Origin: an uncultured Gammaproteobacteria bacterium
GTDB taxonomy: Bacteria > Cyanobacteriota > Vampirovibrionia > LMEP-6097
DNA length: 64,000 nt
Reading direction: 5' to 3'
NCBI GenBank assembly: GCA_964517685.1
Contig: CAZFCF010000001.1
Coordinates: 153,458 to 217,457, forward strand
Below, in pieces: positions 34,464 to 43,153 of this stretch; the stretch's first letter is position 1; each line of letters begins with the position of its first letter. A model generated the notes under the pieces. That model did not search any database and was not told the DNA's origin. It saw only the letters and a list, made by a program, of their open reading frames with translations. Both the position numbers and the translations under genes were made by a program.

Positions 34464-34646
34464 TTAATTCTTGAATTTATGAAACATTAGATTAGAGCTA
34501 TTAACTTTAGAATCCTCTATCGGTTCTGATTCGGCTAATTTACTTTCAGCTTCTTTAATCTGAGACTTAATTAAATTCAGCCTCTCTTTGATTTTGCTTT
34601 TATTAGGTTTTGGTATAAAAAGATCTTGTGAAAAATTTTTATTCAT
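34464..34646 (-). CDS. small hypothetical protein
   Basis: 60-aa ORF starting MNKNF like the 147-aa ORF at 37729; 3 nt from next gene. Confidence 0.3.
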   Translation of the reverse strand: MNKNFSQDLFIPKPNKSKIKERLNLIKSQIKEAESKLAESEPIEDSKVNSSNLMFHKFKN

Positions 34647-34649
34647 AAT

Positions 34650-40355: not shown

Positions 40356-40375
40356 TTTTGTATTTTATTTGTTGC

Positions 40376-43153
40376 TTAAGCTGCAGTTGTTGTCGCTGTT
40401 TCAGGAGCTTTCATCAGTCCAGTTAAGGTTGCTTTCAGAATCTTAGGCATTCCTGAAGAGTCATCTGAGTCTTGTTCTTCTTTCATTTTGTCAACTCTTT
40501 CCTGTAGGATTTTTACGTTGTCTTCATGATACAATCCAGTTGCTCTAAGAACGGCTCTAACACCTTCCTTGACACCTTTTTGGAGGTTCTCTAGAATTTT
40601 ACTAACAAGAGATTTGTGTTCATGATCTCCAGTAGCTAAATCCCAAATATCGTCATTAGCTGCATTTCTTAGGTCGTTGTATTTCTCTACTTTCTTTTCA
40701 AGGTTTTCAATGTTATTAACATCTCCAGAAATACCTGATTGCTTATTACTCAAGAAGCTTTCAAGATCCTTAGATACTTTTTTGCCAAAGTCACTACTTA
40801 ATAAATCAGTTAGTTGACTTTTAAGTCCAGAATCAGCAATTTTGTCAAAAGTTTTATTCTTTTGTGCTTGTTGAAGAGCTAATAATTTTTTAGATATCAA
40901 TATCAAACGTTTAAATTGATTATTAGCTTTATCAAAATCATTAGTACCATCTTTACTTGGATCTAATAATGATTTCTCATTTTCACTAAACGTGATTTTA
41001 GTTTTCTCACTAATAGCAGCATTATTAACTAGAGCTATTAAAGCATCGTAATTTTCCTTAGTTGTTGCTTTGCCTAAACCTAGCGCTGATGCTACATCTT
41101 TTTCTTTTTTGTCTGCACCAGGTACAAACTTACCAATAGCTTCAGTTAAAGCTTTTTTGACTTTACTAAGAGCTGTCAATTTAGCTGATTCAACTTCATC
41201 TCCAGCTTGATTCGCAAGAGCTTCAATCTCATCTTTAGCAGCTTTTGCATAATCAGTGAACATTTCTGAAAACTCATCTTTAATATTGCCATCTTCATCA
41301 GTCATTGATTCTTTTAAACCATGCAAAATAGTTTTACTAATAGTAGAAGCTTTAGACATCATTGGAACTAAAACTAGTCTATTCACTTCTTCCATGAATT
41401 TTTTGTAGTCTTTAGCTTTTTGTTTAGCTTCTTTAGAGGTTTCGTCTAATTGCTTTTTCAAATTATTAGCAATATCTTTTCTATCTTTATCTACTACTAA
41501 ATCCCAAGCTGGTTGTTTTTCTAGAACTTTAGCAAGTTTTACTTCAGTTGTATCGCTAGAATCATCAATTCCAACGATTTCTGTAGCACGCTTACGATTA
41601 GTATCTGCTTCTGCAGTTTTTGTTTCAGTAATTTTATCAAGGATAGCTTGAAGAACTTCATGTGGTTTAACTTCTGTCTTGCCATCAGCTGTTTTTACTA
41701 CAATAGTTGTCTTACTTTTCCCGCTACCTGTTGTACCCCAAGTTGCTTTTTTATCAATAACACCTTTAGAGTTAATTGCACCAGATACTATTTTTATTTG
41801 TTCTTCATTTAAATCTTCTATTGCTAGACCTTTAAGTAAATCATTAATACTTACTGATACACTACCTTTATTAGTTTTATCACTTGCAACTTTTAGTTTC
41901 TCAACTACATCTTTTTGACTTATTTCTACAGCGTCGTCAAGTTTTGTTAATGCAAGTTTTGCGTTAGCAACTAAATCTTTATACCAAGCTTCTTTAAGAG
42001 CTGAATTATCTCCAATTAAGTCTTTAGATATACGAACAGTTCTAGGATTATCTCCACCTGATCTGCTGATTGCAGTTGTAAGTTCATTAGTTTTATTTTT
42101 TGCTTCAGTTACTTTAGCTTCTTCGACTCTAATTCTTGAGTGCTTTTGCAATATTAATTTGCCGATTTCTCTAGAGTTAGTTTCTACAGCCTCAGGTTCA
42201 TCTGATTTAGTTAAATATGCTGCCTTGATCTTCGCCAAGAATTCATCAATAAACTCTCTGCCTTCACTGCCAAGAGCTTTTTCTATGCTCTTTGATTTTT
42301 TCTCCAAATCTTCTTGAAGTTTAGTTTCAACTTTATTGAAGATATCTTCTTTGAGAGTTTCTAAGGCTTTAATAGTCTCAGGATCAATATCAGAATCACC
42401 ACCAAGTAAAGAAATATGTCTAGTTGTTAAAGCTAGAACTTTATTCTGAACGAATTGAGCAAGAGATTTTCCAAGCTTGCCTGAACTTCTAGAAAGTTTT
42501 GAAATAAAACCAGAATCAGATTTAATAAGCTTGTCTAATCCTTGTGAGTTAATTAGGTTAATCGTTCCCTGAACTGATTCAGTAGAATTGCCACCTAAAA
42601 TAGATAGAACACTATTTAAATCAGAAAATTCAATGTTGTTTGATCCAGAGCCATATCTAACAGCTTCTTCAAGTAATGTTCTAGCACTGCTTTGAAGAGG
42701 TTTAAGCATCTCTTCTGAGTCTTCAGATCTGACACTTATGAGTTGGAATAAATTTGCAACTACAGGAGCAAGTTCAGGTTTATAAATAAGTGCCTTAGTT
42801 TTTGGACTTGAGTTTGATAAGTCGTCGCTAAGAGTAGCCATAAGTGCTTCAAATCTATTTTTTGCTTTAGAGCTAACAATTACATTTACTCCACCTGTTA
42901 ATTCTTTTAAAGGGTCTTTTGCATCATCATCAGATTTTGGAACAATGGCAAAATCTTCTTTAGAATCAAGGATCTCTTCAACTTTTTTTATTTGCTCTTC
43001 TAATACTGAAGTAACTTCTTCTTTCTTCTGTGAGCCAGGTTTAGTCTCTCTATAACCTTTTAGCGCATCAGACTTTGAAATCTGTTTAGGAGTTTCCTGT
43101 TGATTTGCTGCATCCGCAAATAAAGGTTTCATTTCAAGTATTTTTCCAGGCAT
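40376..43153 (-). CDS. large (925 aa) K/E-rich hydrophilic hypothetical protein
   Basis: uninterrupted ORF; no TM; low-complexity K/T/E segments. Confidence 0.55.
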   Translation of the reverse strand: MPGKILEMKPLFADAANQQETPKQISKSDALKGYRETKPGSQKKEEVTSVLEEQIKKVEEILDSKEDFAIVPKSDDDAKDPLKELTGGVNVIVSSKAKNRFEALMATLSDDLSNSSPKTKALIYKPELAPVVANLFQLISVRSEDSEEMLKPLQSSARTLLEEAVRYGSGSNNIEFSDLNSVLSILGGNSTESVQGTINLINSQGLDKLIKSDSGFISKLSRSSGKLGKSLAQFVQNKVLALTTRHISLLGGDSDIDPETIKALETLKEDIFNKVETKLQEDLEKKSKSIEKALGSEGREFIDEFLAKIKAAYLTKSDEPEAVETNSREIGKLILQKHSRIRVEEAKVTEAKNKTNELTTAISRSGGDNPRTVRISKDLIGDNSALKEAWYKDLVANAKLALTKLDDAVEISQKDVVEKLKVASDKTNKGSVSVSINDLLKGLAIEDLNEEQIKIVSGAINSKGVIDKKATWGTTGSGKSKTTIVVKTADGKTEVKPHEVLQAILDKITETKTAEADTNRKRATEIVGIDDSSDTTEVKLAKVLEKQPAWDLVVDKDRKDIANNLKKQLDETSKEAKQKAKDYKKFMEEVNRLVLVPMMSKASTISKTILHGLKESMTDEDGNIKDEFSEMFTDYAKAAKDEIEALANQAGDEVESAKLTALSKVKKALTEAIGKFVPGADKKEKDVASALGLGKATTKENYDALIALVNNAAISEKTKITFSENEKSLLDPSKDGTNDFDKANNQFKRLILISKKLLALQQAQKNKTFDKIADSGLKSQLTDLLSSDFGKKVSKDLESFLSNKQSGISGDVNNIENLEKKVEKYNDLRNAANDDIWDLATGDHEHKSLVSKILENLQKGVKEGVRAVLRATGLYHEDNVKILQERVDKMKEEQDSDDSSGMPKILKATLTGLMKAPETATTTAA

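Follow-up and report, generated by a model that had tools for sequence, protein, structure and literature searches.

Three large genes on the minus strand of a 64,000-nucleotide stretch of contig CAZFCF010000001.1 (assembly GCA_964517685.1), hereafter the window, very probably belong, along with two small genes, to a single conserved and co-regulated module, and are not three unrelated orphans. Along the coding strand, the gene order is C, B, s147, A, s60, thyX, where C, B, and A designate the large proteins, of 925, 847, and 852 amino acids (aa), and s147 and s60 designate small open reading frames (ORFs). Gene C (40376..43153, minus strand, as all the genes in question) encodes a protein devoid of cysteine and founds a new family of proteins of approximately 900-1030 aa, gene B (37735..40278) encodes an acidic, putatively all-alpha protein, a distant paralog of C, and s147 (37286..37729; 147 aa) encodes the small partner of B. 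Gene A (34650..37208), which is accessory, encodes a protein also devoid of cysteine and rich in Thr, Ala, Asn, and Ser, its small partner is encoded by s60 (34464..34646; 60 aa), and thyX (34407->33619) is the next gene. A preliminary description of these genes, made from the sequence alone, had offered two interpretations, a novel multi-component system or a battery of secreted effectors. The former is now supported by the co-conservation of the genes across the lineages that carry them, by the paralogy of B and C, by the coupling of the small ORFs to the large genes and by a common promoter-like element, and the latter is weakened by the single-copy, vertical inheritance at a housekeeping locus and by ratios of nonsynonymous to synonymous substitution rates (dN/dS) of 0.18-0.26 for the large genes.

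The comparison involved the lineage of the window and those of loci L006/7, L008-12, L015, L016/17, L018, L020/21, and L022, for which the contigs encoding relatives of A and C were fetched and the orthologs of B were located by synteny beside them. An exhaustive HMMER profile search of 1.84 billion proteins recovered only 11 representative clusters of the C family, all of 900-1030 aa, with identities from 89% down to 18% (the nearest homolog at 89%, then about 41%). In every lineage with a C homolog, the order of C, B, and the small ORF is identical: the B orthologs (approximately 810-860 aa, 85% to 17% identical to B of the window) are always positioned directly downstream of C, and the members of the s147 family (135-160 aa, 96% to 33% identity) follow B in all eight lineages. 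The trio is mostly found between a radical-SAM/SpoU gene group and thyX, among housekeeping neighbors, and in L015 it is intact, with different flanking genes. The module is present in a single copy at this housekeeping locus, and it is vertically inherited and restricted to a small clade of uncultured relatives of cyanobacteria, the clade probably being non-photosynthetic. Scans of a public genome collection with the C family and of metagenomes with the s147 family returned no matches, nor did a tblastn search with B against plasmids; the related GTDB representative genomes are two metagenome-assembled genomes (MAGs) only. A housekeeping fold and universal conservation in free-living relatives had been named in the preliminary description as the observations that would speak against its proposal; the searches turned up no fold of a housekeeping type, and the distribution of the families is clade-restricted.

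The presence of A and s60 is more variable. One close relative of A, 79% identical, is found in L006/L007, with s60 being 88% conserved in L006. In L020/L021, a pair of genes encoding 627 and 55 aa fills the A/s60 slot; the 627-aa protein is matched by A with an E-value of 2e-18 over 257 residues, and the 55-aa ORF of L020 has a C-terminal MF(H/N)KF motif in common with s60. Both genes are absent from L008-L012, L016, and L018. In terms of gene content, A and s60 are an accessory pair, and C, the terminator that follows it, B, and s147 the fixed core.

Selection on these genes was assessed using a close relative (dS about 0.4). The dN/dS values are 0.18 for B, 0.06 for s147, 0.26 for A, and 0.12 for s60, compared to 0.03 for thyX; all five ORFs are thus genuine genes that evolve under purifying selection, and a reading of these as spurious ORFs was rejected on the conservation pattern along with the dN/dS. 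Compared to housekeeping genes, the large proteins are relaxed, and s147 is tightly constrained: at a greater distance, identity is 77% for ThyX, 49% for s147, 41% for C, and 27% for B.

As to the layout of the genes, the five minus-strand ORFs were confirmed where the preliminary description had placed them, with the start of A alone moved. A had been called as 34650-37226 (858 aa from TTG 37226), and public gene calls use ATG 37208; the latter is almost certainly the true start, producing 852 aa, because gene callers use it and because a conserved promoter-like element at 37217-37244 overlaps TTG 37226. The order assigned to the small ORFs, however, was wrong: they had been described as preceding the first two large genes, and on the coding strand s147 comes after B, which it also accompanies in the lineages without A, and s60 comes after A. 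The B stop and the s147 start are separated by 5 nt, and the A stop and the s60 start by 3 nt; in other lineages, the gap between B and s147 varies from 1 to 22 nt, or is replaced by an 8-nt overlap. Shine-Dalgarno-like sequences of both small ORFs are found inside the ends of the preceding large genes (for s147 this is AAGGAAGG, within the 3' end of B), and s147 is translationally coupled to B, and s60 to A. The MNKNF start that had been noted is indeed common to s147 and s60, and it is kept in most of the s147 family, the two proteins being otherwise dissimilar. The small ORFs had also been called acidic, which is true of s147, with an isoelectric point (pI) of 5.4, but not of s60, which is basic (pI 9.6); the s147 family ranges from pI 5.3 to 8.6, and the s60 counterpart in L020 has a pI of 4.9. 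The argument from a spacing typical of chaperone/effector pairs is lost along with the gene order and the acidity, not conserved, on which it had relied.

Paralogy and predicted structure of the large proteins

The preliminary description saw no mutual similarity among the large proteins, and BLASTP searches among A, B, and C indeed find none, but profile comparison reveals an N-terminal domain common to B and C. When the profile of the C family (13 sequences) was compared with that of the B family using hhalign, a probability of 58% was obtained with six B sequences, and of 93.8% with eight (E 1.8e-7, 245 collinear columns). The aligned region, of approximately 270 aa, involves residues 99-371 of C and residues 81-356 of B, and the best-conserved motifs of the two families fall within it (...DSGFIsKLsRSyGkLGkxLAxFVqNKVxALTTRPL in C and ...YIxxixxyFHGQVGxA... 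in B). Used as controls in hhalign, six further large orphans encoded in the window and in related loci reached a probability of 2.6% at most. As judged by their profiles, B and C are ancient paralogs, related via this domain. A is related to neither (less than 1% in profile comparison). The further orphan giants of the window, 569-2350, 14678-17833, and 47486-50890, which had been listed as similar, have no detectable relation to the module (hhalign 0.3% or less), and BLASTP finds no similarity of A, B, or C to other large orphans of the window.

Other claims on the properties of these proteins hold. No transmembrane segment or signal peptide is recognized, the highest 19-residue Kyte-Doolittle mean being 1.18 or less across the five proteins, and none of the five matches Pfam, NCBIfam, PHROG, PADLOC, or PDB sequences. 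Pfam searches with all members of the C, B, and s147 families produce nothing recurrent, and sequence and profile searches of the PDB with all four families return only weak matches to syntaxin-1A. A syntaxin/SNARE relationship was considered and rejected as a chance resemblance of helices: the HMMER profile of the B family matches the Habc domain of syntaxin-1A with an E-value of 5e-4 (21 bits), but hhalign gives only 4.3%, the s147 family matches the SNARE motif with an E-value of 0.17 (only 1.3% in hhalign), and no family member is matched by the Pfam syntaxin or SNARE models. Likewise, the GTTGSGKSK sequence in C (residues ~478-486, about 41700-41725, minus strand) is a chance look-alike of the Walker A motif of P-loop NTPases, positioned in a variable, lineage-specific insert and missing from the 89%-identical homolog P0011. 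For an SMC/Rad50-like ATPase, no Pfam SMC or AAA match is found, and the SMC-type top matches in Foldseek have template modeling (TM) scores of 0.05-0.09, with E-values of 1e-3 or above. The small proteins were compared with the secretion-chaperone families (CesT/SycE, TPR class II, IcmS/IcmW, VirE1), and no match was found in Pfam, NCBIfam, or PDB sequences for s147, its eight-member family, or s60.

The structure of C was predicted with AlphaFold2, using the 13-sequence family alignment, with a mean predicted local distance difference test (pLDDT) of 79.2 and a predicted TM score (pTM) of 0.64. Helices of up to ~50 residues make up almost the whole model, along with a few short strands formed by distant segments, and confidence is low at the ends, over the first ~50 residues, where the sequence is conserved, and over the last ~10. 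Six sequences had given a poor first model (pLDDT 57.5), with meaningless Foldseek matches. For the better model, Foldseek searches of the PDB and of BFVD, a collection of predicted viral structures, return nothing below an E-value of 1e-3, the best matches (TM 0.13 or less, E 1.8e-3 or above) being generic long-helix proteins, and C is predicted to have a fold with no solved structural relative. Alpha-helical pore-forming toxins of the ClyA/Hbl/MakA type were rejected as relatives, as they are absent from the PDB matches of this model; MakA was only matched at an E-value of 1.1, by the earlier, low-confidence model.

The composition of the module is unusual in its cysteine content, with 2 cysteines in 2,831 residues versus 30.7 expected (P about 2e-11), the expectation being derived from the 24 Pfam-annotated proteins of the window (1.08% Cys). 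Members of the C family possess 0-3 cysteines per protein, and Ser, Thr, Ala, Pro, and Glu abound in their C-terminal tails. A check for heptad periodicity gave no signal, but it was poorly calibrated and was not used.

Terminator, promoter-like element and a candidate sigma factor

The strong rho-independent terminator that had been reported between the second and the third gene is real. It follows C at 40321..40353 (minus strand), with a 12-bp stem followed by a U-run (-17.6 kcal/mol, z = -4.0). A hairpin with a T-run is found at the same position between C and B in seven of the eight loci (six of the seven distinct lineages), and, as the position of the hairpin is conserved and its sequence is not, selection for ending the C transcript at this point is suggested.

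A promoter-like element is recognized upstream of each of the three large genes. The one before C (43198..43225, minus strand) reads TCAAAT-N15-ATTTATA, 44 nt before the ATG, and is followed by AAAGAGG, a Shine-Dalgarno-like sequence. The one before B (40287..40314, minus strand), TCAAAAG-N14-GCTTTATA, and the one before A (37217..37244, minus strand), TATCAAAAA-N14-GCTTTATAT, both end 8 nt before the ATG, at 37208 in the case of A. The consensus of this common element is (T)ATCAAAAA-N14-(G)CTTT(A/G)TAT. Its position is conserved in the related loci: it is found 35-43 nt before the C start in L008, L011, L018, and L022, with variants recognizable by eye in L016 and L020, it is found 7-8 nt before the B start in L006, L008, L011, L015, L016, L020, and L022, with 15 nt in L018 instead, and it precedes the A orthologs of L006 and L020, again by 7-8 nt. 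A strict IUPAC pattern of the element has four matches in the window versus 0.66 expected, three of them before C, B, and A, and, of the 18 matches present in 122 kb of related loci, 14 are directly upstream of C, B, or A orthologs, at fixed distances. A position weight matrix (PWM) trained on the other lineages only places the A site of the window on top (21.2 bits), with the B site at 15.2 bits, the level reached by shuffled sequence being 14.2 on average. From its position and conservation, we infer that the element is a promoter common to C, B, and A.

The mRNAs of B and A are probably leaderless or near-leaderless, as the -10-like TATAT box ends 6-8 nt before the ATG, and the C leader after the element, including the Shine-Dalgarno-like AAAGAGG, would be 35-44 nt long. 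In addition, a promoter scan detected a sigma-70-consensus promoter-like site about 100-130 nt upstream of C (43255..43284, minus strand), TTGACG-N18-TAATAT followed by GTAATGCA, and a block of the composition GGGTTGAC-N17-TAATATGTAAAGCA is conserved upstream of the C orthologs in six of the seven lineages.

A candidate for reading the element is also encoded in the window. This is a 252-aa FliA/WhiG-like sigma factor (11499..12257, plus strand), whose best NCBIfam match is TIGR02479 FliA_WhiG (E 3e-20, below the curated cut-off). Its ortholog in L015, 56% identical, is encoded at 36-734 (minus strand) and is the divergent neighbor of the C ortholog, and a near-match to the element, TTCAAAAT-N13-CTTATATT, is found in the upstream region of the sigma factor gene. 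When compared to the generally known consensus of sigma-28 promoters, the layout of the element is loosely similar, with an A-rich -35 box, a spacer of about 15 nt and then GC-TTTATA. The CGA core found in sigma-28 promoters is missing from the element, and so the sigma factor can only be proposed as possibly reading it.

Some further sequences resembling the element were observed in the window. The fourth strict match, at 54131-54158 (plus strand; 19.9 bits with the PWM), is found just past the gene for the RNase P RNA (53763-54125), and an ORF starting 15 nt further on (54174-54869, plus strand) encodes a 231-aa hydrophilic orphan without a Pfam match, which may belong to the same regulon as the module. 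Weaker PWM matches, of 13-17 bits, and thus within the shuffle range, are intergenic, at 2459-2529 and at 52078-52113 (both minus strand), the former upstream of the orphan giant 569-2350 and the latter upstream of a ParA/VirC1-like gene (50951-52057). A variant with one mismatch, TATAAAAG-N15-CTTTGTAT, is present at 50915-50944, upstream of the giant 47486-50890. Many other genes of the window, for example those starting at 20829, 29774, and 34407 (minus strand) and at 55179 and 58060 (plus strand), possess a -10-like box (TATAAT, TAGAAT, TAAGAT) ending 6-8 nt before the start and no Shine-Dalgarno sequence, and for this reason leaderless mRNAs may be common in the source organism.

Possible functions of the module

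We tentatively interpret the module as encoding paralogous helical proteins that, with their dedicated small partners, form a co-regulated assembly without an enzymatic role, possibly exported. C and B would represent an undescribed all-alpha family, with the common N-terminal domain followed by long-helix regions, and they would most likely cooperate as a structural or scaffolding assembly. The s147 protein would be a dedicated binding partner of B, made along with it through translational coupling, and acting as a chaperone, an adaptor or an assembly factor, and s60 would play the same role for A. C, B, and A would be switched on via the common promoter-like element, possibly read by the divergent FliA/WhiG-like sigma factor, and C, as a separate unit ended by a strong terminator, could be produced at a dosage different from that of B. 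The large proteins would then leave the cytoplasm by a Sec-independent route, and their site of action would be the cell surface or another cell, either prey or host, a scenario that we prefer, although it is unproven and remains somewhat doubtful in our estimate, and that is suggested by the lack of cysteine, the weakly modeled ends, the fast divergence and the lack of a catalytic domain. Complex formation, the roles of s147 and s60, the sigma link and export are all what we infer, and not what was observed.

A number of points weigh against this interpretation. Both the cysteine poverty and the long helices are typical of cytoplasmic coiled-coil scaffolds as well. The nearby VirB4-like ATPase, discussed below, best matches a conjugative element and is not adjacent to the module, and a core role in the cell would account for the strict single copy and the vertical inheritance among housekeeping genes no less well than a role directed at a host. 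The structure model covers C alone, the promoter role of the element is deduced from position and conservation, and the sigma link from adjacency in one lineage and from a loose sigma-28 geometry missing the CGA core. Finally, the placement of the source organism is indirect, being drawn from the DUF561/Ycf23 and pentapeptide-repeat proteins and from a MAG labeled as Cyanobacteriota, and the closest MAG is labeled as Gammaproteobacteria.

Some of these very points would be expected of a cytoplasmic scaffold or a cytoskeleton-like assembly, in which the paralogs would polymerize or form a large complex involved in cell shape, division or polar organization, with s147 as an assembly factor, and we consider such a role unlikely but still credible. 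C is all-alpha, its helices reach ~50 residues and its global fold is modeled with fair confidence, the proteins are hydrophilic and without export signals, the locus is a core, vertically inherited one among housekeeping genes, and structural helical proteins are often cysteine-poor. Paralogous pairs often form hetero-oligomers. In being long-helix, hydrophilic, cysteine-poor, non-enzymatic and chromosomally encoded, the proteins resemble the cyanobacterial coiled-coil-rich cytoskeletal proteins and helical scaffolds of the crescentin or FilP/Scy type. However, the C model features bundles of helices of 20-50 residues, with small beta elements, and not a continuous rod, no homology to these scaffolds was detected, the divergence is very fast for a core cytoskeleton (B at 27% identity where ThyX is at 77%), A and s60 can be lost or gained, and the SMC- and cohesin-like matches in Foldseek are meaningless, at TM scores below 0.1.

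The view of these genes as an effector battery, each member transcribed on its own, assisted by its small chaperone and delivered into prey or a host by a type IV secretion system (T4SS) or another specialized secretion system, now appears rather improbable. It does accommodate the lack of signal peptides, transmembrane segments and enzymatic domains, the fast divergence of the large proteins next to a better conserved small partner, the strong cysteine depletion, and the low-confidence C-terminal tail of the C family, with its bias toward Ser, Thr, Ala, Pro, and Glu. The lack of signal peptides and of cysteine, the fast divergence, a small, better conserved and coupled gene adjacent to the large one, a dedicated promoter, and a VirB4-type ATPase in the organism are reminiscent of the secretion substrate-chaperone operons (T3SS effectors, of type III secretion systems, with CesT-type chaperones, VirE2/VirE1 of Agrobacterium, or IcmS-IcmW of Legionella), and the size of ~850-925 aa, the hydrophilicity, the absence of domains, the restriction to a lineage and the low-GC genome are reminiscent of the large orphan effectors of the Legionella, Coxiella, and Chlamydia types. 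The one cultured non-photosynthetic cyanobacterium, the predator Vampirovibrio chlorellavorus, has also been proposed to use a T4SS (PMC4451040). On the other hand, such effectors are usually scattered, variably present and mutually unrelated, while the module is syntenic, co-regulated and with internal paralogy, and B and C, always kept together with s147, do not behave as independent cargo. The module is outside of any island and not beside secretion genes, it is vertically inherited as a single-copy core locus, it has no similarity to effector or chaperone families, and C has no relative among solved folds. The small genes come after the large ones and not before, neither s147 nor s60 can be matched to a chaperone family already known, acidity is not conserved, s60 being basic, and the export of the module products is only putative.

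The secretion machinery in the window provides little for such a battery. The sole secretion marker, a VirB4-like ATPase (5626-8409), is encoded about 32 kb from C, possesses two N-terminal transmembrane helices and an AAA_10 match, and shares ~24% identity with plasmid TraC/VirB4; in NCBIfam, it is best matched by NF045975, a Mycoplasma-type ATPase of integrative and conjugative elements (ICEs; E 1.5e-37, below the cut-off). No coupling protein, VirB9, VirB10, or VirB11 was seen among the window ORFs scanned. Because of the distance, of the best match to a conjugative ICE and of no coupling protein being seen among these ORFs, the link of the module to a T4SS is weak, and the VirB4, which looks conjugative, makes no argument for an effector-translocating T4SS. 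The ATPase is part of a T4SS-like cluster (2648-9438, minus strand) that also includes a 415-aa protein with multiple transmembrane segments (3838-5085) and small unannotated ORFs, and in L008 a 30%-identical VirB4 with similar small neighbors is found ~8 kb from the module, that is, within 10 kb, which, like the ATPase of the window itself, counts in favor of the battery.

Two further possibilities are more remote. Highly diverged axial proteins of the flagellar type, exported by a type III system and accompanied by chaperones, as in fliD-fliS-fliT or flgK-flgL with flgN, and expressed from a sigma-28-type promoter, would have in common with the module cysteine-free helical proteins without signal peptides and with low-confidence ends, small helical partner genes directly behind the large ones, a dedicated, non-sigma-70-like promoter with a sigma-28-like layout, and a FliA/WhiG-like sigma factor, in L015 adjoining the module, and some Melainabacteria are flagellated (PMC4451040). 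Against this, no flagellin, FlgK, FliD, FliS, FlgN, or FliT domain is recognized by Pfam or NCBIfam in the C, B, and s147 families or in A of the window, Foldseek gives no flagellar structure match, no flagellar or type III secretion gene is seen among the window ORFs scanned, and the -10 box, lacking the CGA core, differs from GCCGATAA, making this possibility very improbable. Polymorphic toxin-immunity pairs, with a toxic C-terminal domain in the large protein and the downstream small ORF as the immunity gene, are hardly believable: a large gene followed within a few nt by a small one is the classic arrangement, but no toxin, Rhs, PT-repeat, or delivery domain is found in Pfam or PADLOC, s147 is the most conserved component (dN/dS 0.06), with no co-diversification with a variable tip, the C-terminus of B is conserved across the lineages, and there is one copy of the module, in whose vicinity orphan immunity or toxin cassettes are absent.

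Returning to the assembly of helical proteins that we favor, its most far-reaching version would be a new, lineage-specific structure, extracellular or involved in cell contact, of non-photosynthetic cyanobacteria that live as predators or epibionts, built by Sec-independent export of two paralogous proteins of novel fold, with the small partners maintaining export competence and with a joint switch of the divergent FliA/WhiG sigma type. We regard this version as improbable; if true, it would represent a new attachment or prey-interaction apparatus, whose parts have no relatives in the known secretion or flagellar systems. Overall, as the membership tests run gave no positive, the module, built from new protein families, is not assigned to any named system. 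Instead of three hypothetical proteins, a unit is now defined, consisting of a three-gene core, an accessory pair, two new paralogous families, a predicted fold lacking solved relatives and a common regulatory element with a candidate sigma factor, and this unit would present a new cell-contact system if exported, or a new bacterial scaffold if internal. Hardly any of the non-photosynthetic relatives of cyanobacteria have been cultured, and their cell interactions are known only as genome-based proposals for one predator. For this clade, the module provides a clean phylogenetic marker, and the promoter element provides a route to the rest of the regulon. The importance of the module, an orphan of a metagenomic lineage with a putative function, is potential and not demonstrated.

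Source organism and other features of the window

The window, with a GC content of about 33%, encodes a bacterial class A RNase P RNA, and the presence of LpxC and LptF/G indicates a diderm envelope. Other genes encode ThyX, HisZ/HisG, a DUF561/Ycf23 protein and two pentapeptide-repeat proteins. Judging by Ycf23, the pentapeptide-repeat proteins and thyX, an origin from a non-photosynthetic cyanobacterium (Vampirovibrionia/Melainabacteria-like) is more likely; the published Melainabacteria have a GC content of 27.5-49.4% (PMC4451040). A MAG labeled "Cyanobacteriota bacterium" (L014) has 60% identity in DUF561 and the same DUF561-LptFG arrangement. The closest MAG (L013/L006, GCA_964420165.1), 93% identical, is labeled "uncultured Gammaproteobacteria," and this label is probably wrong, since Ycf23/DUF561, the pentapeptide-repeat proteins and thyX favor Cyanobacteriota.

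Two tandem paralogs (55179-57824 and 58060-60849, plus strand) of 881 and 929 aa, 66% identical, contain pentapeptide repeats and a PcfJ-like region, and each of the genes has a near-consensus sigma-70 promoter and a GTG start 6 nt past the -10 box. A short, GC-rich repeat is dispersed over 20 sites of the window, including 2544-2624, 30797-30907, 43420-43526, 44174-44204, 46938-47017, and 52173-52203, with CTCGCAATGACG occurring 20 times (0.08 expected) and GGGGGATTGCTTCG 10 times (0.14 expected). The copies are mostly intergenic and often paired or inverted, some being located within ORFs, and the repeat looks like a family of repetitive extragenic palindromic (REP) elements or of miniature inverted-repeat transposable elements (MITEs). 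Between the radical-SAM gene and the next gene, at 44525-45908 (minus strand), an AbiEii toxin gene is found along with an upstream gene for a 205-aa partner, a type IV toxin-antitoxin pair. In L011 (11727-13106) and L012, the AbiEii pair is instead located downstream of thyX, and, from these different positions, the cassette appears to move around the locus.

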